DNA of 41,665 bases, taken from NCBI GenBank assembly GCA_030539515.1, contig JAUNXZ010000001.1, forward strand, positions 1-41,665, in the 5' to 3' direction. The stretch comes from Thermoplasmata archaeon (GTDB lineage: Archaea; Thermoplasmatota; Thermoplasmata; Methanomassiliicoccales; Methanomethylophilaceae). How positions within the stretch are numbered: position 1 is the stretch's first letter; the number at the start of each line of letters is the position of its first letter. Below the pieces are notes generated by a model. It was not told where the DNA came from. It saw only the letters and a list, made by a program, of their open reading frames with translations, and ran no database searches. The translations under genes and the position numbers were made by a program. Positions 1 to 38,904 of this stretch are shown here, piece by piece.

Positions 1-184
1 TGATGACGACGTCGCCGATCGTGTTGACCAGCATCTTGTCCATCCCCTTGGGTCCCAGGGTGGACCTGACCGCGTCGGCGACTGCCTTGGCGGCGCTGAT
101 GTTGTTGAACTGAGCCTCTTTGTCTTTGCTCCTCTCCGTGCCCTCTTTGAGCACGATGACGGGCTGGTTTCCAGAACCGTACAT
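1..184 (-). CDS. ths: Thermosome (group II chaperonin) subunit, 5' part; runs off the window
   Basis: Translates [53 protein letters not shown], with the hallmark [11 protein letters not shown] motif. SD-like AGGTGA upstream of the ATG. Confidence 0.95.
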
Positions 185-277: not shown

Positions 278-1075
278 TCGGTGGCGGTCGCCGTAGCAGT
301 CGGTGCCACGCACCCCGGCCTCGTCGCACAGCGCGTCCAGCACCTCCACCGCCTCGGGGGACGGGCGTATGCCCATGCGCTCCAGCCTGCGGGTGTCGAC
401 GAGCCTGAGGTTCAGCCCGTCGCGGTACACGGCGCGGATGCCCGCCGCGACGAGGGCGTCCACAAGCTCCGCCTCGGAGCCCTCCAGCGTGGACATGACC
501 GGGGCGACGAGCGCGTAGGTCTCGACGCCGGCGTCGAGCAGCCCCGTTATGGCCCGCAGCCTCGCCTCCGGCAGCGGCGCGCCGGGCTCGGTCATCTTGG
601 ACACCCGGTCGTCCACCGTGGTGACGGTCATGCCAACCACCGAGTCCATCCCCGAAAGCAGATCGAGGTCCCGCAGGATCAGGTCCGACTTGGTGTGGAT
701 GTGGACGCGCCTGCCCTTCGCGGAGAGGACCTCGAGGCACTGCCTGGTGAGCCTGAAGCGGCGCTCGGCGCCCTGGTACGGGTCGGTGACGGTGCCGATG
801 CCGATCGTCCCGTCCACGTACGGCAGCTCCCTGCAAAGCCTGTCGATGAGGTTCCTCTTGACCCTCACGACCCTCCACTCGGACAGCTCGGAGTGCGTGT
901 GCCCCGGCGCGTAGCAGTAGATGCACCCGTGCTCGCATCCCCCGTAGGGGTTGATCGCGTAGTCCATCTCCGGGAGCCCGGACGGCGAGAGCGCCCTGGA
1001 GCACTCGACGAGCCTGAACGGCCCGTCCCACTCCGGGGGCTCCCCGGTGAAATCGCCCAGCGTGGTGTCGGTAAT
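278..1075 (-). CDS. Radical SAM protein, spore photoproduct lyase-like / DNA-repair associated
   Basis: NPYGGCEHGCIYCYA (CxxxCxxC), GTVTDPYQ and HTKSDL motifs. The frame is open and family-like (CSRALSPSGLPEMDYAINPY) upstream of the first ATG (967) to about ATT at 1075, so the start is uncertain. End placed at CGA 278-280; standard TAA at 242-244. Confidence 0.8.
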
Positions 1076-2345
1076 AGTCCTCGATCCTCCTCTGGACGCG
1101 CCAGTCCCTCATCACGTCGGAGTTCGCGATCCACCCGTCGCGCTTGATGTCCATCATGGATTCGACCCTTGTCAGCACGTCGTCCATGGTCTCGAAGTGC
1201 TCCGGCTCCGTGCGGAGCGCGGCGCGCACGTTCTCCCTCACGTTCCACACGCCGACGGGCATCACGTAGCCCGGATGGGCCTCCCTCATTATGACCGCGC
1301 CCGCCGTGCGGCCCTCCTCGATGAGCAGCTCGTTGACGGCCATCCTCGACGCGTAGTAGCATCCGCCGATGTGGGCGTACTCCGTCCTCCCGTCGAAGAA
1401 CTCGGAGTCGTGGATGACGTCCACGGTCCTGCCGGAGGGGTTCCATGTGGTGTTCGGGTACCACGCCTCGATGAGCTCGAACCTCCAGGTGCAGGGCATC
1501 AGCATGATGGCCCACCTGTTGTCCAGCTCCTGCCAGGTGTAGAGGCGGAAGTCGTCGATGGTGGGGTTCCACTTGGTCGTCTTGAGGAGATCCTTCCCGA
1601 TGATGTCGTCCACGGCGGTGATGCTCCACCTGGTGGGGACGAAGCGCCTGCGCTTGTCCACGCCCATGGTCCCCACGGAGAAGGCCTTCTGGATCTCGGA
1701 GATCAGGGTGCCGTTGCGGTACGCGGAGACCACCGCGTCGGTGGCCTTCATGTCCACGTCGTAGAAGCTCCTCTCCAGGTTCCTCTCGAACCTGCCGTTG
1801 CCGAGGGTCATCTGCTCCATGCGCGCCGACGGCCCGAAGGGCTCCACGTTGTCGTCGAGGATGACGCGGCCCTTGGGCTTCTGGGCGAAGGAGGCCTCCA
1901 CGTCCACCGGGCGTTCCGTGAGCGCGAGCTCCTGCACGTTGTCCACGATGCGGCCGTACTTCCGGAAGTCGGTGGCGTCGATGCGGTACTTCCCGCGGAC
2001 CAGGCGGAACCTGAAGTCCACGATCTCGTCGATGCTCTTGCCGACCCAGCGCTCCGGGGTGCCCATGATGGAGGTGTCCCCGAACTCCGGCGGGAGAAGC
2101 GGTCCGATGTCCACCTTCGGGTAGCCGTACCTGCCGACGAAGACGGCGGGAGGGCTCGAGCCCGCCAGGTCCTTGGCGTCGATGAGCGGGCGGGCCTTCA
2201 TCTGGGAGTAGAACTTGATCATCAGGGGGCAGCGGTCCTTGCCGCAGAGCCTGTGGGCGCCCTTGCATATGGAGCACAGGCCGCTCTTGAGCTCGGCGCC
2301 GTTGTAGGCCGCCGACTGCTCGAAGAAACCCGTTGCCGTGACCGT
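1068..2345 (-). CDS. nreA: Nre (NreA) archaeal PCNA-interacting DNA repair protein
   Basis: Absent from the ORF track because it has no standard stop. N-terminal CSICKG..LCGKDRCP zinc finger, GSSPPAVFVGRYGYPKV, VPTRWSITAVDD, GGCYYASR, PVGVWNVRENVR, and C-terminal PIP-like QRRIEDYY followed by CGA (1068-1070). Start is non-canonical (ACG 2345/2339/2333 or frameshift). Confidence 0.9.
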
Positions 2346-12530: not shown

Positions 12531-13386
12531 GTACCTCACGTCGGAGGACATCTGCAACCAGCTCTGCATGGAGAGGACCGTCTTCGACGGCGTGTTCCTC
12601 GTGGTGGAGGGCATAACGGACAGCAGGCTGTTCGGGAAGTTCGCCGACAGGGACGGCGTGCAGATACACATCGCCCACTCCAAGGACAACGTGCGCAACG
12701 TGGTCCGCGAGATGTCCGGAAAGCGCAGGGACGACCGCACCATGGGCATCGTCGACCCGGACCTGGAGAGGCTCCGCGGCCGGTCCGCCAAGCCGCCCAT
12801 GTTCTACACCGACTGCCGCGACATGGAGATGATGATCATCCGGAGCAACGCGCTGGACGACGTCATCGACGAGTACGGGGACAGGGAGAAGGTCGAGAGG
12901 TTCGAGGAGCGCGTGGGCCCGATCAGGGATGCGCTGATCTCGGCCAGCTACCCCGTCGGGATGCTGATGTACGTTTCGCAGACAAGGGGGCTCAACCTGA
13001 GCTTCAAGGACCTGGACTTCTCCAGGTTCATCAACGCCCAGACCCTGAGCCTGGACGCGTCCGCGATGGTCAACGAGGTGCTGGCCAACTCGCGCTCGGT
13101 CCGCGTAGGGAGGAAGGAGATCCTCAGGACGCTGGACATGGAGTGCGGCCAGCTGGACGACATGTGGAAGGCCGCCAGGGGCCACGACACCGTGGACATC
13201 CTGCTGATCGGCCTGCGCCGCGGTTTCGGCGGGTTCAACGCCTCCGGGCTGAACGAGGGCGAGCTGGGCGGTGCGCTCAGGCTCGCGTTCTCCGACGCGT
13301 GCTTCGCGGAGACGGACCTCTACAAAGACACCGACGCCTGGGCCGCGGAGGCCGGCGTGGTCCTCTGGACGCTCAATCGGAGCCGA
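12523..13386 (+). CDS. DUF4435-like TOPRIM-fold protein (AriB-like)
   Basis: TOPRIM-type VVEGITD and GIVDPD, plus RDMEMM and RGHD; coupled to the ATPase by overlap. End at CGA 13384-13386; standard TGA at 13396-13398. Confidence 0.75.
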
Positions 13387-19358: not shown

Positions 19359-22293
19359 CCTCAACCCCTCCCAGGAGGCCATCGCGACCACCCTGGACGG
19401 GATGGTCGTCGTGGATGCCGGGCCCGGCACCGGGAAGACGCACACCATCGTCCAGCGCTACATCAACCTCATAACGAGGGACACGGGGGACGAACCTGCG
19501 GTCACCCCGCGGGACGTGCTCCTCCTGACCTTCACGCGCAACGCCGCGGCGGAGATGGAGGAGCGCATCAAGCGCGAGATGTCGAAGGAGGGTATGGCCG
19601 AGGAGGCCAAGCTCGTCCAGGTGCTCACGTTCGACGCGTTCTGCCTCTCCGTGGTGATGGAGTCCCCGTACGACGCCGGGAGGCTCTTCGGCATAGACGA
19701 GAGGCTCACCCACTCGGTGCGCCTGGTGGAGAACGACACCCTCAACAGGAACCACTTCACCTCGTTCCTCGAGGTGTTCCTCGACTCCCGCGGCGAGGAC
19801 TACGGCGACAGCGCAATAGTCTGCTCCCAGATCCCTGGGGACCTCTACGCGTTGATCGGCCGCCTCATGTCCCGCGGCATCTTCCCGCTGAAGCGCGGGG
19901 GATGGTTCGGCGGCAGCGACGGCAAAGAGCTCGTCGGGGATACCGCGGAGCTGCTGGCGAGGATGAGGTCCCGCAACGAGGTCTCCGGGAGGGCGAAGTC
20001 GTCCGACATGCGCAAGGCCCTGGCCTCGCTGAAGCCCCTGGACTGCGACCCGCTCCCCGAGATCGGGGAGGACGCATGCCTCGACGACTCGATACTCGTG
20101 TCGGCGGCGGAGGACGACCGCTCCGAGCTGCTCCGCCTCGTCCACGACGTGTACTGGGAGTACATCCGCTCGTCGATGGCCGACGACCGCCTCACGTTCG
20201 GTCTGAACGCGATGCTGGCGTTCTCGGTCCTCTACAGCAACCCCGGCGTCAGGAAGCTCAACTCGTACCGCTACGTGATGATAGACGAGTTCCAGGACAC
20301 CAACGCCAGCCAGCTCATGATGGCCCTGATGATGCTGAAGGAGCCCAACCTCTGCGTGGTTGGCGACTGGAAGCAGGGCATCTACGGGTTCAGGTTCGTC
20401 TCCATCGAGAACATAACGGAGTTCGAGAGGAGGACGGTGGAGCTCAGGAGGGTGCTCAACGACGACCTGGTCAGGGTCGAGTTCTCCCTCCCGGAGGCCG
20501 TACGCCTCCATCTCGACATGAACTACCGCTCCTCGCAGCTCATCGTGGACCACGCGTTCAGGTGCCTGCGCCTCAAGGGCAACAAGCAGGACGAGCCGGA
20601 CCATGCGAAGCTGGACAGGACGGTGAAGCTGATCACCGCCGCCAGGGACCCGGACATAGCCGGCGACACCCGCGTCCGCTTCGTGAAGGCCGCGTCCAGG
20701 GATGACGAGGCCATCGAGGTCGCCAGGTGCGTCAGGGACTACGTCGGATCCGGGAACTACACGGTGCACGCCAGGGACGGCGCCCGCCCCCTGGGGTACG
20801 GCGACATCGCCGTGCTCTGCAGGACCACCCAGGGGTGCAGGAACGTGGTGGAGCGGCTGGCCCAGGAGGGCATACCCGCCTTCCTCCAGGGCGACGTGGA
20901 GATCATGGCCACCCGCGAGGGGAAGCTGCTGCTCGCCTGGATGCGCTACGTGAGCAACGAGAGGGACGCCTGGGGCTACGCTCCGATACTCGCCGACCTC
21001 GGCTACCCCCCGTCCTTCATCGACCGCGTCTGCAAGGGCGAGGCGGCGATGCCCGCGGAGATCGCCTCCCAGAGGGAGTACCTGTTCAGGAAGAGGCGCC
21101 GCGTCACCGAGATGATGACCTCGGTCTACGACTGGTACGGCCTGGACAACGACGTGACGCAGGCGATAGTGAACGTGCTGTCCGCCGCGCACAGGGACTC
21201 CCTGCTCACCATATCCGACCTCATCGCCATGATCGACGGCGACCTGTCCTCCGGGAGGAGGACCGTCTACCCCGTGGACGCGGAGCTGGACGGCGAGGCC
21301 GTCATAGTCACCACCATGCACAAGGCCAAGGGCCTGGAGTTCCCCGCGGTCATCATCCCCTACGTGGACACCCGCGTCATGCCGTCCTCCGGGACGGACA
21401 CGTCGGACATCTGGTTCGACTCCGTCGCCGGGGTACGCTGCTCGAGGACCGTCGGCAGGTTCGAGGGGTACTCCAAGCTGTGCAGGTCCTGGAGGACCGC
21501 CCTCGTCAGATCCACGGTGGAGAGCGACTACGACGAGGAGCGCAGGCTCATGTTCGTCGCCATGTCCCGCGCCATGCAGTACGAGACCGTGATCTGCGGG
21601 CCCAAGCCCTCCCAGTTCATGGTCGGGCTCTCAAACGACCTGTACGAGGCGATCCCGGACGCCGAGGCCCCGCCCGCATCCGTGAGCGACGGCACCGCGC
21701 CGAGGCCGGACCTTTCCGGCTACACCGTCAGGAAGCAGAACGTGGGCGTCCACTCCGTGATGCGCTTCGACGAGCAGACCGTGATAGACCAGGAGTCCGG
21801 GTCGGACGAGATCTGCGGCAAGGGGAAGGAGTACGGCACCGCGGTGCACGAGGAGGCCCAGGCCATGGACCACGGCGTGCCCCCGTCGGGGAGGTACCCC
21901 GAGGCGGAGTACATCCGCGACAGCGTGCTGTCCAGGAAGTCCCTGGACGGCTTCCTCCGCTCGTACTCGGAGATAGAATGCACCCTGCCGGTGCGCCCGT
22001 CCGGCGTCTGCCTGAAGGGCGTCATAGACCTGATGCTCCTGTACGAGGACCGCGTCGAGATCCACGACTACAAGACCGACGTGTCGGACAGGTTCCAGCC
22101 CGAGTACGTGCTCCAGCTGTCGGTGTACGCGCACGCCGCCGCGGGGTACTACGGCGGGAGGCTGCCGGTCAGGTGCTACATCGACTACGTGTCCCAGGGC
22201 AGGACGGTGGAATTCGACCCCATGCCCCTGGAGGACGTGGAGACCCTGGTCGGAGGCCGCCTTTCCTCCCAGAATACCGTCGCGAACCTGCGA
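19351..22293 (+). CDS. AddA/UvrD-like SF1 helicase with C-terminal PD-(D/E)XK nuclease (980 aa)
   Basis: AGPGTGKT, LLTFTRNAA, IDEFQDT, VGDWKQGIYGFR, NYRSS, TMHKAKGLEF, EERRLMFVAMSRA, GVIDL..HDYKT..QLSVY. End at CGA 22291-22293; standard code runs to 23193. Confidence 0.9.
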
Positions 22294-22327: not shown

Positions 22328-24925
22328 ATGAAGGGACTGACCTCGGCGGAGGTTGCGGAGCGCAAGGCCCAGGGCCTTGTGAACGACTCCGAGGTGAAGA
22401 CCAGCAGGACTTACACCGATATCTTCCTGAAGAACCTGCTGACGCCGTTCAACATCGTGCTGTTCATACTGGGCATCCTGCTCCTGATCTGCCAGGAGCC
22501 CATCAGCGCGGTATCCGCCACTGGGATCATCATCGTGAACATCCTGATCTCCACCGTCCAGGAGATGCGCGCGAAGCGCCGCCTGGACAAGATCTCCCTG
22601 CTCACCAGGCCGAAGGTCAAGGTGTTCAGGGACGGCGCAGAGGCCGAGGTGGACCAGTCCGAGGTCGTGAAGGACGACGTCGTCATCCTCCGCGCCGGGG
22701 ACCAGGCCGTCGTGGACGGCGTCATAGAGGAGTGCAGGTCGCTGGAGATGGACGAGTCCCTCCTCACCGGCGAGTCCAGCACCGTCAGGAAGAAGGCCGG
22801 CGAGCCCATCTACTCGGGCGCGAACTGCGTCACCGGAGAGGCGTACTACACCGTCACCGGCTTCGGGGCCGACTCGTACGCGTCCCAGATGCTCAGCAGC
22901 GCCAAGAAGTTCACCTCCAAGAAGACGCCGCTGGAGATGGAGACCGGCACCGTCACCAAGATGCTGATGGCGATCGCGGCCATCCTGTTCATCATCACGA
23001 TATTCAAGTCGGTGTTCGTCACCCACGAGAGCTTCTCGCAGACCCTCCAGGTCTTCGTGCTGTGCCTCGACGTGGTGCCCATCGCGCTGTTCCTGCTCAT
23101 AACGCTGACCTACATGATCGCCGCCGTTCGCATGGCCGACTCCGGGGTGCTCCTCCAGAGGACCAACTCCGTCGAGTCGATCAGCCACGTTGACGTCGTC
23201 TGCATGGACAAGACCGGGACGATCACCACCAACAAGCTCCGCTATGAGAACTCGTGGGACCTGGTGTCCCCCGTGGAGGCGGAGCACCTCATCGCGGTGT
23301 TCGCGTCGACCACCGGGAGCAGGAACCGCACCGTGGACGCCCTGGCGAACAGGTACGGCACCGCGGACGCGGAGCTCCTGGAGGAGATCCAGTTCTCGTC
23401 CGAGCGGAAGTACAGCGCCGTCCGCGTGAGGGACGGGGGGAACGAGTACAACCTCTACCTCGGGGCCCTTACGTCCCTGAAGGACCACATGGACACCGAC
23501 CAGGACATCGCCACCCACGTCGACGCCGAGTCCCGCAAGGGCCTCAGGACCGTCCTGATCTGCAGGGGCCCCGCCGTCCCGCTCCACGATGCGGACGACG
23601 AGCCGGTCATCGGCAGGATGGAGCCCGTCTCCGTCGTGTCCATACGCGACGAGGTCAGGCCGGACTGCAGGGAGACCATCCAGGTCTTCATGGACAACGG
23701 CATGCAGCTGAAGGTCATCTCCGGGGACGACCCCGTCACCGTGGACTCGCTGTTCACCATCGCCGGCATCCCCGGCGAGAGGAAGATCGTCTCCGGCCCC
23801 GAGCTCGACGCGATGAGCGAGGCGGAGTTCACCAAGGCCGCCCTCGAGTGCAACATCTTCGGCAGGATGAAGCCGGAGAACAAGGAGCACGTGATCGAGG
23901 CCCTCAAGAACAACGGCCACTACGTGGCCATGATCGGGGACGGCGTCAACGACGTCAAGTCCCTGAAGACCGCCCAGGTGGGCGTGTCCCTGGAGTCCGG
24001 CGCGGGAGCCGCGCGCGGGGTGGCGGACATGATCCTGGTGGGCGACAACTTCTCGGCCCTGCCGAAGGCCCTGGTTGAGGGCCGCAGGACCGTCTCGGGC
24101 ATGAGGGACATCCTCAAGCTCTACCTCACCCGCAACTTCTGCCTGGCGCTGCTGTTCGTGGCGATATTCGTGCTCTTCGGGAACATCCCGATGATCCCGA
24201 TCCAGAACACGTTCTACGCGTTCATCTCGGTGTCCATCATGGCGTTCTTCATGACGCTGTTCGCCAAGCCGGACGAGAACAAGGAGCTGATCCTGCCGGA
24301 CGTGCTGCGGTACTGCGTCCCATCGTCGATAATGATCGCTGCCTTCGGCCTGCTGGTCTACGGGCTCGCCTGGTACGGCGTCTCCCACGGGACCCTGGTC
24401 GTGGACTGGGCGGCGATGGTCGAGACCATCGGCTACAGCGGGACCGCCGAGCAGCTCATCGCCTCGCTCTCCTGGAACGGATCCGGGGAGGCCGAGATCG
24501 TCGCCAGGACCTGCATGGTGCTGTTCGTGACGTTCGCCGGGCTCTTCCAGATATTCATCATCTGCCCCAGGTGGAAGATCTTCTCCGTGGACGGCAGGAC
24601 CAACAAGAGCCTGGTGCCCTTCGTGATCACACTGCTGATCATCGGGCTCGTCATGGCGATGTACCTCTACTTCCCGAAGCTCGCGGTGGAGTTCATCGGC
24701 TTCGCGCTGCTCCCCGGCTACTGCTACGCCGCCATACTCGGCTTCGTGGTAGTGCTGATGGTGCTGGAGCTGCTGGTCCTCAGGACCAACCTCTTCAAGC
24801 ACGTCATCGAGAGGTTCGAGGAGTACTACATGAGGAAGCTGGACGAGGAGTACAGCGAGGGCGACGTGAGGGAGGAGACGGGGGTCAAGGTGAAGATCCC
24901 CCTGGACAAGTTCCCTCGTCCCTGA
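22328..24925 (+). CDS. P-type ATPase (CtpE-like architecture)
   Basis: DESLLTGES, DKTGTIT, FSSERKYS, VISGD, GDGVND; about 10 TM helices. Confidence 0.93.
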   Translation: MKGLTSAEVAERKAQGLVNDSEVKTSRTYTDIFLKNLLTPFNIVLFILGILLLICQEPISAVSATGIIIVNILISTVQEMRAKRRLDKISLLTRPKVKVFRDGAEAEVDQSEVVKDDVVILRAGDQAVVDGVIEECRSLEMDESLLTGESSTVRKKAGEPIYSGANCVTGEAYYTVTGFGADSYASQMLSSAKKFTSKKTPLEMETGTVTKMLMAIAAILFIITIFKSVFVTHESFSQTLQVFVLCLDVVPIALFLLITLTYMIAAVRMADSGVLLQRTNSVESISHVDVVCMDKTGTITTNKLRYENSWDLVSPVEAEHLIAVFASTTGSRNRTVDALANRYGTADAELLEEIQFSSERKYSAVRVRDGGNEYNLYLGALTSLKDHMDTDQDIATHVDAESRKGLRTVLICRGPAVPLHDADDEPVIGRMEPVSVVSIRDEVRPDCRETIQVFMDNGMQLKVISGDDPVTVDSLFTIAGIPGERKIVSGPELDAMSEAEFTKAALECNIFGRMKPENKEHVIEALKNNGHYVAMIGDGVNDVKSLKTAQVGVSLESGAGAARGVADMILVGDNFSALPKALVEGRRTVSGMRDILKLYLTRNFCLALLFVAIFVLFGNIPMIPIQNTFYAFISVSIMAFFMTLFAKPDENKELILPDVLRYCVPSSIMIAAFGLLVYGLAWYGVSHGTLVVDWAAMVETIGYSGTAEQLIASLSWNGSGEAEIVARTCMVLFVTFAGLFQIFIICPRWKIFSVDGRTNKSLVPFVITLLIIGLVMAMYLYFPKLAVEFIGFALLPGYCYAAILGFVVVLMVLELLVLRTNLFKHVIERFEEYYMRKLDEEYSEGDVREETGVKVKIPLDKFPRP

Positions 24926-26044: not shown

Positions 26045-26734
26045 ATGCGCTACGCGTGGACGAAGGAGGCGGAATTCGTCTCGAGGCCCAACAGGTTCGT
26101 CGCGGAGGTCATCCTCGACGGAGTACGGGAGAAGGTCCACGTGAAGAACACCGGCAGGTGCAGGGAGATACTCGTGCCCGGGACCCGCGTCGTTCTGTCC
26201 GATTCCCGGAACCCGGGCAGGAAGTACCGCTACGACCTGATAGCCGCATGGAAGGGCGACCTGCTGATCAACATAGACTCCCAGGCCCCCAACAGGGCGT
26301 TCCACGAGCACATCCTCCGCGGGGAGGTGTTCGGGCCGCCTTCGGTCGTTCACCCGGAATGCACCCACGGGGACTCCAGGTTCGACTTCTACGTCGAGTC
26401 GGGGGACCGCAGGATATTCGCCGAGGTGAAGGGCGTGACGCTGGAGCACGACGGGGTGTGCAGGTTCCCGGACGCTCCGACGGAACGCGGTCTGAAGCAC
26501 GTCAGGGGGCTCGCGGAGTGCGTGACCGAGGGCTATGAGGCCTACGCCGTGTTCGTGGTCCAGATGGGACGCATGACGCTGTTCGAGCCCAACGCCGACA
26601 CCGACCCGGACTTCGCCCGGGGGCTGGCGGAGGCCGAGGACGCGGGCGTGAGGGTGCTGTGCCTCGGATGCGACGTGGAGCCGGACTCGATGGACATCTC
26701 GTACGGGATACCGCACAGACTCACTCGTAGTCGA
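26045..26734 (+). CDS. sfsA: DNA/RNA nuclease SfsA
   Basis: RPNRF, HVKNTGRCRE, SRFDF, EVKGVTL, FPDAPTERGLKH. End at CGA 26732-26734; standard TGA at 26785. Confidence 0.93.
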
Positions 26735-28676: not shown

Positions 28677-29078
28677 ATGCCCGGATACACGGAGCTGACG
28701 GTCCGCACGGCGGAGAGCGAGATGGTCGACATCACCGAGCGGGTGCGCCGCGTCGTCCGCGAGAGCGGCGTGACCGAGGGCTACGTCTTCGTGTTCTCCG
28801 AGCACACCACGGCCGGGCTGACCATCAACGAGAACGCGGACCCCGATGTGAAGACGGACATGCTGTACGGACTCGAGAAGGCGTTCCCCGTGAGGCCGGA
28901 GTACCGGCACGCCGAGGGGAACTCCCACGCCCACCTGCGCACGTCCTGCGTCGGGCCGTCCGTGACCGTGATAGTCTCCGGCGGCGAGCTGGTCCTCGGG
29001 ACCTGGCAGGGCATCTACTTATGCGAGTTCGACGGACCCCGCACCCGCACGGTTGCGGTCAAGGTCACAATGGGTCGA
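28677..29078 (+). CDS. yjbQ: YjbQ/UPF0047 family protein (133 aa)
   Basis: HTTAGLTINENADPDV, HAEGNSHAH, LGTWQGIYLCEFDGPRTRTVAVKVTMG, then CGA at 29076-29078. Confidence 0.92.
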
Positions 29079-32477: not shown

Positions 32478-33947
32478 TCGGAAATCGAATAGGCTGCGCT
32501 GGTTCTTCGGCCTAGCAGGAGGCTCGGGAGCAGGCTTGGGAGGCTCCGGGACGGCCTTCGGGGGCTCGGGGGCCACGGGGGCATCGATGCTCGCCGGAGC
32601 CGCCCTCGGCGCCTCGGAGCGGGCCTTCTCGGCGCGCTCCTCCATGAACTTCTCGGCGGCGGCCATCGCGGTCTTGACGTCCTTGGAGTCAGGCTTCTTC
32701 CTTATGAGCATCGCCAGCTCGTCCTCGTCCAGGCAGAGGTCCGCCACGAGCCCGGGGCGGACCTTGGGATCCGCGGACGCAAGCATGGACAGCATCGGGA
32801 TCACGTCGGAGTCGGCGCGGTCCGGCGTCGTGTGCATGGCGACGGCGATCTTGTACGAGAGCGTCCCGCGGGTGCCGCGGACGCCCCTGCTGCGGGACAT
32901 CCTCATCATGTAGGACGGGAAGCGCATCCTCTCGCGGCCGCAGCGGTCAGACATGCGTGCGGTTACGAGACCGAAGGACATGAGGTCCGACGCGTAGGAC
33001 CAGAAGCCGTAGTACTGGCGCCTGCTCACGCGTCCGAGGTACATCGCCGAGCGGGAGAGCTTCTCGTACCCGCGGACCAGGTCCCCGGGGTCCACGTACT
33101 CCGTAGGCAGGTTCTCGTCTATCCACAGCAGCTTGGTGGCCGGGTCCTCGTCCACCTCCGCCAGCGCCCTGCGGGCGACGGCGGGGTCCCTGCTGCGGAA
33201 CACGGCGGAGAGCATCGAGAACAGGTCGGTGCGCACGTCCCTGTGGGACAGGCCGTCGGACATGTCCTTGGTGACTGAGGACTCGCCGATCGCCATGGAC
33301 TCCAGGTTGCGGACCGCCGCGCGCATGTCGCCGGAGGCGTTCTCCGCTATTGCCTTCATCGCTTCGGGGTCAACCTCCACGCCCTCGCGGTCCGCTATGA
33401 GGTAGAGGGCCTTGGCGATGGTGGCGGACTGCGGCTTCTTGAAGACGATCTGCAGCGTCTTGTTCTTGATGGCGCTGCTCTTCCTGCTCACGGCGTAGAA
33501 GTCGTTGACTATGAGTATGACCGGCTGGAGCGTCGATGTGATGAGCTCGTTCACCACGGGCATGGCGCCGCGGTCGCTGTTGCCGAAGAAGTTGTCCGCC
33601 TCGTCGAGGACGATGAGCTTCCTGCCGCCGGAGGACGCGTCCCCGTAGGAGCCGTCGCTCCCGAAGGTGTTGAACCTGGAGCCGCGGAGGGCGATCCCCT
33701 CGATGGCGGAGGCCTTCCTCTGGTCGGAGGCGTTCATCTCCACGATGTCCCACCCCATCTCGCGGGCGAGCGCCTCCGCGGAGGTGGTCTTCCCGACCCC
33801 GGGCGGCCCGATGAGCACCACCGCGCGCATCTCCGGTATCCCGGACTCCCAGGCCTTCGCCCAGGCGCGCAGGGTGTTGACCGCGCTGGGGTTCCCGACG
33901 ACGCCGTCCAGCGTCCTGGGGCGGTACTTCTCCGTCCAGTCGCTCAT
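32478..33947 (-). CDS. rfcL: Replication factor C large subunit
   Basis: WTEKYRP, GPPGVGKTT, EMNASDQR, LDEAD, GDMRAAV, WIDEN, Pro/Ala linker and C-terminal PIP box QRSLFDF followed by CGA-TGA-TAG. Confidence 0.96.
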
Positions 33948-34423
33948 CGGTCCTCCGGGGAGTAGGCGTAGCGCAGGATGTCCATGCACTGGTAGAAGTA
34001 CACCGCCACGTCGAGGAACATGGTGAAGACGGTCTGGGCGCGCCAGGACCAGTCGTTGAGGTACCAGATCACGACGGTCATCACGAGGAACATCGCCCCG
34101 CGGGCGTACTGCTTGAGCACGAAGTGCCCCAGGCCGAATATGTTGAAGAAGCCCGGCAGCAGCGCCAGGCCGATGGCCAGCGTCCCGTTCTTCCGGAGGT
34201 TCGGGACCATCATCGGCATCGGGGCGCTGTCGGGGAGGGCCGTCCCGCAGGTGCCGCAGAAGCGGTCGCCCGGGTGGTACGGCTCGCCGCACGCGGGGCA
34301 GGCGTTGCTCACGTAGCCCTTGTCGTCGAATAGGAACGCCTTGTCCTTCATGCAGCCGCAGTGGGGGCAGAAGTCCATGTCCCCGTCTATCTCGTTGCCG
34401 CACTCGGAGCAGACGTACCTCAC
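33947..34423 (-). CDS. Double zinc-ribbon membrane protein
   Basis: GTG start overlapping the ABC gene stop; CSECG..CPHCG..CPACG..CGTCG, TM segments with GLGHF; ends CGA-TGA overlapping the rfcL ATG. Confidence 0.8.
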
Positions 34424-35255: not shown

Positions 35256-35549
35256 TCGCGCGGGCTTCGCATTCTTGACGCACTTGTCGATGGCGATGAG
35301 CAGGCTGGCGACCTGCTCGCCCGCGGGCGTGAGCGTCACTATGGTGGAGCGGGTCACCACGTCCATCTCCTGCTCGAGGAGGCCCAGCTCCTCGAGCAGG
35401 TTGAGCTTGTCCGGCATCCTGGGATTCGAAGACACGCCGTCGTAGATGTCGATCTTCCTGCTGGGGCCGTTGGCCGACAGGAATGTGAGGATCGAAATCA
35501 TGTGCTTCTCCTCGAGAGCCGTCACGCTGGCGGTGTCCTTGCGATTCAT
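35256..35549 (-). CDS. Small winged-helix DNA-binding protein
   Basis: LEEKHMISILTFL..KLNLLEELGLL..VTLTPAGEQVA pattern. End at CGA 35256-35258; standard TAA at 35247. Confidence 0.75.
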
Positions 35550-37923: not shown

Positions 37924-38904
37924 TCAATGAGCGTTTGGCCTGCAGCCCGTTATGATCTCGGTGCCGAAGTCGAAGACCGTGGCGGTCTCCTTCCCATCCG
38001 TTATCTTGAGAACCGATGTGTCGTCCACCTTCCCGACCACTGCGCCCCTGCAGGAGACCTCCTCGAAGATGTCGATGATCTCCTGGGAGTTCTCCGGGGG
38101 GCATGCGAAGCAGAACCCGCATCCCTGGTAGGCGAGCACCCATCTGACCGGGTCCGCGTTCTCGGGCGAGGGTATCCTGGTGACGTCGACGGTGGCGCCG
38201 ACTCCCGAGGACTCGAGCATCATGCCTAGGGTCCCGATGCTGCCGGGGTTGCTCATGTCCTTGCACGAGTGGGCCAGGTGCCTCTCGCCGACCACGGCGG
38301 CGGCCTCCATCTGCGCCCTCACGAGCTCGTCGGGCTTGTCGACCGTGGTGACGAACGCGTAGGGCAGGTGGTCCGGGTAGAATCCGTCGGTGTCTATCAC
38401 GAACACGATGTCGTCGCCGGGCCGGGCGGTGCTGCTCCTTAAGAGCGCGTCCTTGGCGACCTTGCCGACGATGGAGATGTCGATGGCGTTGTAGTGGCAG
38501 TCCGGGTGCACGTGGCCTCCCACGATCGGCACTCCGAACTTGCGGATGCCGTCCTGCATCCCGCGGATGATCTCCCTGCACACGTTGCCGTGGACGATGG
38601 ACATGACGTCCACCATGCCGAGGGCGCGACCTCCCATGGCGGCGATGTCGTTGACGTTGACGAGAACGGCGAAGTACCCCGCGTAGTAGGGGTCGGTGCT
38701 CACGAGGGACTCCATGATGCCGTCCGCCGCGAACAGGATGTACTGGTCGCCCACGTCGATGGCCGCCGCGTCCTCGCCCTCTGCGGCCGCAACCTGCGGG
38801 AACCCCGTGGTCGGCAGCAGGTCCACGATCTTGTGGATGGCGTGCTTCCTGGTCACGCCGGGGTAGGTGCGGATGGCCTCCGCGATCTCTCCGATCGACG
38901 CCAC
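37924..38904 (-). CDS. Methanogenesis marker 2 protein (AIR synthase/PurM-like)
   Basis: YPGVTRK, GEDAAAI, LVNVNDIAAMGG, VGGHVHPD, KDMSNPG. GTG start with AGGAGG upstream. Confidence 0.85.
   Translation of the reverse strand: MASIGEIAEAIRTYPGVTRKHAIHKIVDLLPTTGFPQVAAAEGEDAAAIDVGDQYILFAADGIMESLVSTDPYYAGYFAVLVNVNDIAAMGGRALGMVDVMSIVHGNVCREIIRGMQDGIRKFGVPIVGGHVHPDCHYNAIDISIVGKVAKDALLRSSTARPGDDIVFVIDTDGFYPDHLPYAFVTTVDKPDELVRAQMEAAAVVGERHLAHSCKDMSNPGSIGTLGMMLESSGVGATVDVTRIPSPENADPVRWVLAYQGCGFCFACPPENSQEIIDIFEEVSCRGAVVGKVDDTSVLKITDGKETATVFDFGTEIITGCRPNAH

Follow-up and report, generated by a model that had tools for sequence, protein, structure and literature searches.

CGA as a probable leaky stop codon at gene ends in a lineage of Methanomethylophilaceae, traced from the end of an archaeal nre gene

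Sense codons as stops in described systems

Sense codons have been turned into stop codons in several organelles. For instance, AGA and AGG serve as stops in vertebrate mitochondria, UUA and UUG in the mitochondria of the Marsupiomonadales, and UUA and UCA in the pedinophyte-derived plastids of dinoflagellates (PMC12574857). The plastid case has been called the first sense-to-stop change outside mitochondria (PMC12574857, published in 2025), and our literature search found no established change of this kind for a cell's own genome. Here, we describe a candidate from a Thermoplasmata archaeon of the family Methanomethylophilaceae. It came to light in a stretch of 41,665 nucleotides (GenBank assembly GCA_030539515.1, contig JAUNXZ010000001.1; the whole stretch is called the window below), in which the gene nre very probably ends at the arginine codon CGA. 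CGA stands at stop positions and is rare inside genes in this lineage, and the reading that we consider probable is that it would act as a leaky stop, at which the archaeal release factor aRF1 would compete with a probably weakened tRNA-Arg(UCG).

As in the organelles, a former sense codon is found at gene ends opposite the stops of homologues and has been lost from gene interiors. In the organelles the cognate tRNA is absent and the release factor carries matching changes (PMC12574857), whereas the present case concerns a whole cellular genome that retains the tRNA and a few conserved internal CGAs, and in which no change in aRF1 tracks the trait. Among the features of a complete reassignment, terminal placement is found (39 of 289 anchored genes, 22 of them at exactly the same codon), but CGA is not absent from gene interiors and its tRNA is not lost. 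Since two defining features of that class are missing, CGA has to be set apart from complete sense-to-stop reassignment.

A CGA stop has previously been raised as a possibility for two Njordarchaeales assemblies, by a method that cannot infer stops (Melnykov, bioRxiv 10.64898/2026.04.02.715157). That case likewise concerns archaea and the same codon, which is missing from conserved domains; the suspicion came from absence only, in assemblies that read CGG as Trp and have no tRNA-UCG. In contrast, the present genome belongs to a different order, CGG means Arg, the tRNA is present and terminal CGAs are shown against orthologues. The dataset and supplements of that preprint may bear on novelty.

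Two described systems involve a release factor itself. Bacterial RF2 (prfB) is autoregulated and giant viruses carry internal stops in eRF1, such feedback having been said to be absent from archaeal and eukaryotic factors (PMC3521657, 2012). The aRF1 genes treated below resemble RF2 in having, early on, a conserved codon that their own product would read; unlike RF2, they keep one continuous frame without a shift, and the codon in question is one for arginine. Yeast eRF1 is a class I factor from the same family. With reporters it shows a minor degree of termination at CGA, where it competes with a poor tRNA, and Arg at position 123 raises this degree (PMC7379694). The equivalent of position 123 is Arg in the aRF1s of the family and of their outgroups. 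In contrast to yeast, CGA here appears, from the sequences, to have become the ordinary end of roughly one gene in seven.

Within the same family as the window's genome, Methanomethylophilus alvi uses TAG for pyrrolysine ('Genetic Code 34'), and the available text of that preprint is without CGA (bioRxiv 10.1101/2024.09.30.615893). That change is stop-to-sense and opposite in direction. The window's genome has pylS and few TAG ends (11 of 1,294), and the CGA and TAG-to-pyrrolysine changes may be linked. As far as its accessible text goes, the Codetta survey reports CGA only as a sense change, in bacteria (PMC8629427), and its accessible supplements gave no match for the organism names; the available text of a review of archaeal recoding has no occurrence of CGA (PMC8211752). 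Our literature search, which left subscription papers mostly outside its scope, found no report of CGA as a stop in this lineage and none that pairs the family or order with CGA.

The end of nre in the window and in its orthologues

The window is contig C73 of an assembly of 1.68 Mb with 64% GC, 82%-complete and in 186 contigs, which is called G000 below; other G-numbers denote other genomes and L-numbers denote fetched loci. In a tree of aRF1, the closest relatives of G000 by Nre identity group with Ca. Methanoprimaticola sp. MG2, and these relatives belong to the Methanomethylophilaceae. The features around the end of nre are as follows.

1068..2345, minus strand: nre (Nre_N and Nre_C domains), 425 codons followed by CGA, from Pfam and translation
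1071..1094, minus strand: C-terminal PCNA-interacting (PIP) box of nre, QRRIEDYY, of the form QxxhxxAA, from the sequence and the motif definition in PMC4929162
1068..1070, minus strand: CGA at the stop position of nre, from orthologue ends
1053..1055, minus strand: second in-frame CGA, five codons past the first, inside the overlapping radical S-adenosylmethionine (SAM) gene; also in G017

The described NreA protein has Nre_N and Nre_C domains, a Cys4 motif and a C-terminal PIP box, and its gene lies adjacent to an SplB-like radical SAM gene (PMC4929162). In all these respects the predicted Nre protein of the window looks ordinary, differing only in the codon that ends the gene (PMC4929162). 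Pfam finds Nre_N and Nre_C over cut-off (E 1e-98 and 1e-36), and the Nre_C match reaches profile position 110 of 110 at residue 428 of 429, directly before the CGA; the NCBIfam NreA match falls below its cut-off. None of the 39 Arg codons in nre is CGA. The gene probably starts with ACG at 2345-2343, a codon that aligns with an ATG in G017; the first ATG of the frame, at 2222, lies downstream of the Cys4 motif.

The initial annotation had seen that the PIP box runs straight into CGA and that the frame stays open for more than 1 kb, and both points stand. The minus strand from 1094 to 1068 encodes Q-R-R-I-E-D-Y-Y with CGA at 1070-1068, and under translation table 11 the frame reaches the window edge after another 355 codons (1,065 nt), which hold 24 more CGAs and no TAA, TAG or TGA. 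A listing of open reading frames gives nre as a 3'-open frame only. The read-through frame crosses the radical SAM gene and then enters the thermosome gene, and a Pfam search of the 356-codon tail gave no match at E<=0.1.

Of 41 genomes, 37 have Nre, and the 30 fetched loci gave 34 parsed Nre ends. The codon after the PIP box is TGA in 22, CGA in 6, TAA in 5 and GAA in 1, the last with a TGA two codons further on. The PIP motif of the window's Nre is C-terminal if CGA stops, and 27 of 34 orthologues end right after it at TGA or TAA. All six CGA ends belong to the 22 from the window's genus (none of the 12 outside), and they occupy at least three separate places on a FastTree phylogeny. An overlooked TGA or long C-terminal extensions in orthologues had been named as what would speak against a CGA stop. 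Neither was found: other assemblies have the same CGA, and the read-through tails of the six genes vary (21, 60, 73, 82, 358 and >355 codons). Moreover, nre is under purifying selection, with non-synonymous divergence (dN) of 0.08-0.16 against synonymous divergence (dS) of 0.67-1.19 in comparison with six relatives. A pattern scan of metagenomes returned a single locus, with TGA, which is too few to use. Tandem nre paralogues occur in L004, L005, L006 and L008 (G016, G020, G023 and G010), the second starting just past the stop of the first.

Orthologue ends, purifying selection and the genome-wide pattern described next together make it very probable that CGA ends Nre right after the PIP box. 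Termination at CGA, as proposed in the initial annotation, is therefore supported; a clean stop is not, as a few conserved internal CGAs are still read as Arg and the tRNA is kept. Nor is nre the strongest single case, as had been claimed. It is a good one, but the CGAs in aRF1 and at fusion junctions tell more about the mechanism.

CGA inside genes and at gene ends

Interior CGAs were counted with a gene finder that scores CGA as neutral, the relatives being sampled in part (120-400 kb each). The interiors of G000 hold 35 CGAs in 415,674 codons (25,115 for Arg), compared with 261 in 94,602 codons (5,298 for Arg) in the outgroup G031. Relatives are similarly poor, with 6 in 100,189 codons in G008, 5 in 47,555 in G012, 1 in 31,534 in G017 and 1 in 31,769 in G004. 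The loss is specific to the reading frame, as G000 has 31 CGAs in frame and 2,220 and 8,371 in the other two frames. Most of the 14 interior CGAs inspected among the 35 are gene ends or in-frame gene junctions.

Gene ends were anchored with 314 G000 genes for which the alignment to an orthologue runs out at that orthologue's standard stop, a best-frame filter being applied against antisense shadow frames. In 289 of them the first terminator lies within 3 codons of the partner's stop, and it is TGA in 243, CGA in 39, TAG in 4 and TAA in 3; in the other 25 it is further off. Exactly opposite the orthologue's stop, TGA occurs 187 times and CGA 22 times, followed by GAG with 7, and 21 of these 22 CGAs face TGA. 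Homology-free calls place CGA at 230 of 1,294 ends, which is an upper figure. A standard stop follows within 8 codons in 87 of the 230 and lies >20 codons away in 102, and 77 of the read-throughs would overlap another coding segment by >60 nt. Standard stops within 3 codons are found after 23% of terminal CGAs and after 9% of TGAs. The following base differs as well: after clear terminal CGAs (n=102) it is T in 42 and A in 6, after TGA (n=1,002) T in 234 and A in 206 (p ~1e-4 each).

With a local coding filter, CGA ends 10 of 72 genes in G017, 10 of 88 in G012, 5 of 59 in G004, 2 of 26 in G041 and 2 of 93 in G046. The interior loss is wide in the clade, and the heavy terminal use lies in the GC-richer genomes. 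Codon bias is weaker in CGA-ended genes (0.43 vs 0.48), which fits lower expression but may partly be an artefact of end calling.

Some single observations concern the same codons. Two G000 proteins, on contigs C137 and C93, end in PIP-like motifs (…KLSDFF and …RRLDDFF) directly before CGA, as Nre does. A HAMP/SpoIIE phosphatase gene (L269:1321-3378, minus strand, on contig C29 of G000) carries a single CGA within its SpoIIE domain, some 50 codons upstream of the gene end. In L151, CGG makes up 182 of 333 Arg codons, far above its tree neighbours.

Lone CGAs in aRF1 and at fusion junctions

For aRF1, 111 loci from relatives were compared, 96 from the family and 15 from outgroups, with background CGA use measurable in 69 owing to flank length. 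An internal CGA is present in 93 of the 96 family loci and is the only one in 86. In 56 loci the background is CGA-poor, at 16 of the 15,229 Arg codons that lie outside aRF1. Every one of these 56 carries a CGA in aRF1, where 2% would be expected to, and it is often the sole interior CGA within 20 kb. It lies at codon 78 in 59 loci, at 25 in 16 and at 11, 123, 50 or 9 in others. Since the place shifts between clades, presence is conserved more than place. Codon 78 aligns with a conserved Arg (R81 of human eRF1) in a continuous frame, with no bypass by +1 frameshift, and the preceding codon 77 is GCT or TCT in 54 of 60 loci. Several contigs with a Methanomethylophilaceae-type aRF1 are titled as gut bacteria (Ruminococcus, Prevotella, Dialister and others; L094, L095, L097, L110, L112, L113, L114 and L133) and are most likely mis-binned archaeal contigs.

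Two kinds of gene fusion carry a CGA at the junction. By Pfam, three G000 paralogues join a NifH-like domain to a nitrogenase component-1-like (NifDK-like) domain, each with one CGA in the linker; the fusion proteins fall below the NCBIfam cut-offs for CfbC and NifH. The comparison covered 27 of 30 fetched loci and two G000 paralogues, excluding three NifH-only loci and the unfetched paralogues. In the genus these genes have 43-68 Arg codons, of which 25 of 26 copies use CGA just once and invariably in the linker; none of 3 outgroup fusions has such a linker CGA. The following base is A in about 15 of 25, and the linker sequence around the CGA is not conserved.

The second kind joins GmhA-like and GmhB-like domains, with CGA at codon 180, where the GmhA models end and the GmhB models begin. 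Among the 24 of 28 loci examined, 20 belong to the genus; there, the junction codon is CGA in 10, TAG in 2 and AGA in 2, while 2 have CGA at 179 or 186 and 4 have TAA and split genes. The outgroup loci have AAA (3) or CCA (1). This exchange of CGA with TAG and TAA is predicted by a leaky stop and not by a folding pause. The in-frame TAGs are in L328 and L334 (G016 and G020), where read-through with pyrrolysine may do what CGA does in sister genomes.

A retained tRNA with an abnormal anticodon arm

The gene for tRNA-Arg(UCG) is kept in G000 (contig C133) and in 19 genus relatives. All 20 copies are abnormal, 15 having an unpaired 31:39 and 5 having C33 with an unpaired 27:43. Such changes of the anticodon arm would be expected to weaken decoding. 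The tRNA is intact in 6 of 6 outgroup copies, located by BLAST, and in the family genomes G041, G044 and G045, which still use CGA; it was not found for G042, G043, G047, G048 and G049. With regard to other tRNAs of G000, tRNA-Arg(GCG) was not found in the assembly, and two identical copies each were seen of tRNA-Arg(UCU) (C89:6672-6749 and C90:4956-5033) and of tRNA-Gly(UCC) (C53:953-1026 and C150:2904-2977).

A probable leaky stop and its alternatives

Terminal placement of CGA, its loss from gene interiors, an abnormal tRNA, and lone conserved CGAs in aRF1 and at two kinds of junction are observed. As a probable account of them, aRF1 itself would release the chain at CGA in competition with the retained and probably weakened tRNA-Arg(UCG). 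The CGA in the aRF1 gene would then act as negative feedback like that of bacterial RF2, plentiful aRF1 truncating its own synthesis and scarce aRF1 letting the tRNA read through. Junction CGAs would let a single gene yield both the N-terminal protein on its own and the whole fusion, and flanking bases would tune the leak, with U after CGA favouring the stop and A favouring Arg. Where the first CGA of nre leaks, the second at 1053..1055 would back it up. Once CGA could terminate, GC-ward transitions from TGA to CGA would spread it at gene ends. We incline slightly towards a broader version, in which aRF1 of this free-living lineage would read CGA as a tunable fourth stop, set its own level and thereby the ratio of free to fused nitrogenase-like and heptose-pathway enzymes, and in which the family would preserve each stage of a sense-to-stop change beside the TAG-to-pyrrolysine one.

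Several observations weigh against this account. Terminal CGA is rare in part of the genus (8 of 225 ends in G008, a share close to the 2 of 88 in the outgroup G031). The genomes are kin and some were fetched twice, so the counts are not independent. The 82%-complete G000 assembly has no aRF1 gene by TIGR03676 or tblastn, and all statements on aRF1 rest on relatives; a match of the eRF1_1 model in G000 proved to be Pelota. All 15 outgroup aRF1 genes hold 1-4 CGAs as well, and some positions must thus be inherited. In human eRF1, R68 packs against I62 of the NIKS motif and an Ala mutant loses activity (PMC3632111). The equivalent position is Met or Leu in 96 of 96 family aRF1s and Arg (12) or Gln (3) in the outgroup, the NIKS motif being standard; however, Met or Leu also occurs in family members that use CGA freely, and no aRF1 column separates CGA-poor from other family loci. 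The CGA-poor genome G046 has an intact tRNA-Arg(UCG), which shows that tRNA damage is not needed for CGA depletion.

The ribosomal protein eL18, for which 29 of 30 loci were parsed, weighs against the account as well. Of 16 genus loci 15 keep an internal CGA, as do all 13 from outgroups, and read-through must therefore be efficient in some contexts. The alignments indicate that this CGA is ancestral and that it is still read as Arg. A role as a clade-specific control element was rejected, as the outgroups carry it too. The Trp-Arg-Asp codons around it (L243, contig C143 of G000) hardly vary in the order as a whole (28 of 29 loci), suggesting an element at the RNA level that predates the code change.

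The main rival of a leaky stop is stalling followed by rescue. Ribosomes that stall in archaea are split by Pelota, aEF1A and ABCE1, and peptidyl-tRNA hydrolase frees the chain; CGA might then be a starved Arg codon, never decoded by aRF1, with the protein ending at the same site. The abnormal tRNA of 20 of 20 genus genomes, the presence of Pelota and the lack of an aRF1 residue that tracks the trait would all suit such a scheme. It is nevertheless unlikely, as the lone CGA is kept in aRF1 (56 of 56) and the assembled part of G000 pelota has none. Moreover, only CGA, the one-transition neighbour of TGA, replaces stops, and G046 is CGA-poor despite its intact tRNA.

Rather improbable is a second scheme, by which CGA would be a full stop and the few internal CGAs would be recoded by local signals, as UGA is for selenocysteine, and not by a general leak. 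It draws on the conserved contexts, such as the T that ends aRF1 codon 77 in 54 of 60 CGA78 loci and the A after about 15 of 25 NifH-linker CGAs, which is rare after terminal CGAs, and on the efficient read-through that eL18 needs. On the other hand, the position of the aRF1 CGA shifts, with at least six seen, and conservation is lacking in the linker sequence next to the fusion CGA, no search aimed at an RNA structure having been made; the extra standard stops just past terminal CGAs suggest a leak there too.

CGA could also be no more than a slow Arg codon, CGA-ended genes running on to the next standard stop and linker CGAs acting as folding pauses. The tRNA gene is indeed kept, internal CGAs align with Arg and a standard stop follows within 8 codons at 87 of 230 CGA ends. 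Nre, however, would be extended across two genes by >355 residues that match no Pfam family, and >60 nt of another coding segment would be overrun in 77 of 230 read-throughs; the tails also vary among orthologues. In addition, the loss of stops should also yield TGG, TGC, AGA or GGA, while only CGA is enriched, and the GmhA/GmhB junction swaps CGA with TAG and TAA. We therefore regard this explanation as very improbable.

C-to-U editing of mRNA occurs in plant organelles, and an enzyme of this kind could turn CGA into UGA. It would fit the 21 of 22 exactly placed CGAs that face TGA and the probable ACG start of nre where G017 has ATG. There is little chance that it applies here, given that CGA depletion is specific to the reading frame, that CGG aligns with Arg 33 times, with Lys 6 times and with Trp 0 times out of 43, and that CGG falls outside the eight codons seen most often opposite Trp (TGG 268). 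Likewise, a start ATG is paired with ACG in only 4 of 286 genes, and CAA is not among the 15 commonest codons opposite stops. Non-AUG starts are uncommon in G000 in general, 10 of 286 genes lacking ATG, GTG or TTG near the partner's start.

Finally, a sequencing or assembly error or a dead nre gene, which a 186-contig assembly might bring to mind, is practically ruled out by the same CGA codon in five other genomes, already a contradiction from independent assemblies, by purifying selection and by a pattern that is genome-wide and clade-wide.

Other CGA ends in the window

The gene finder called nine CGA ends in the window, nre included. The neighbours of nre and the remaining ends are as follows.

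278..1075, minus strand: radical SAM gene, overlapping the nre end in the -1 frame; predicted end CGA 280-278
1..184, minus strand: 5' end of the thermosome gene; Pfam Cpn60_TCP1, E 7e-8, with a score just under cut-off for this 61-residue piece
22291..22293, plus strand: CGA ending a UvrD-like helicase/nuclease gene (from 19351), by Pfam and the G012 orthologue
29076..29078, plus strand: CGA ending a UPF0047 gene, exactly opposite a TGA of G012; next standard stop 136 codons further
38895..38897, minus strand: CGA ending a CorA-like gene, shared with G012 at the same codon; next standard stop 14 codons further
26732..26734, plus strand: CGA ending an SfsA gene; standard stop 17 codons on; G012 has CGA two codons earlier
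13384..13386, plus strand: CGA ending a DUF4435 gene; standard stop 4 codons on; a weak case
33947..33949, minus strand: CGA directly followed by TGA, ending a double zinc ribbon gene, by the G012 orthologue
35256..35258, minus strand: CGA ending a 104-codon gene without Pfam match; standard stop 3 codons on; a weak case

On read-through, the UvrD-like gene would run on for 300 codons over a P-type ATPase gene at 22328, and its G012 orthologue has a standard stop a few codons earlier than the CGA. In the UPF0047 gene the Pfam model is complete at residue 130 of 133. The CorA-like gene of G046 has TGA one codon before the window's CGA position, and the double zinc ribbon gene of G012 has CGA at the same codon with a standard stop 23 codons on.

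The radical SAM gene has a standard TAA at 244-242, 12 codons past its CGA, and its G012 orthologue stops three codons before that CGA. It probably starts with ATT at 1075-1073; there is no ATG at this start in G017, G012, G004, G015, G036 and G040 either. A programmed frameshift fusion of Nre and the radical SAM protein was considered and is unnecessary, orthologues with TGA showing the same overlap. The N-terminus of the radical SAM protein (1075-1050, minus strand) holds a short T-L-x-D-F-like stretch that is kept in many relatives and that presumably resembles a degenerate PIP box. Read-through of the nre CGA as Arg would overrun the thermosome 5' end out of frame.

What a dual Arg/stop codon would mean

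For annotation, translation table 11 over-extends or drops genes in these genomes, as 102 of 1,294 G000 ends have their standard stop >20 codons past a CGA. The family is also the source of a widely used pyrrolysyl-tRNA synthetase pair (bioRxiv 10.1101/2024.09.30.615893). If the leaky-stop reading is true, a sense-to-stop change in a cell's own genome would have been caught in an ambiguous state, and the 'ambiguous intermediate' route would become directly testable. It would also bear on how eRF1 and aRF1 discriminate U from C at the first stop position, and it would provide a release-factor feedback loop in archaea. Judged from the sequences, a dual Arg/stop codon CGA that would be used for regulation appears to be a larger finding than the end of nre.

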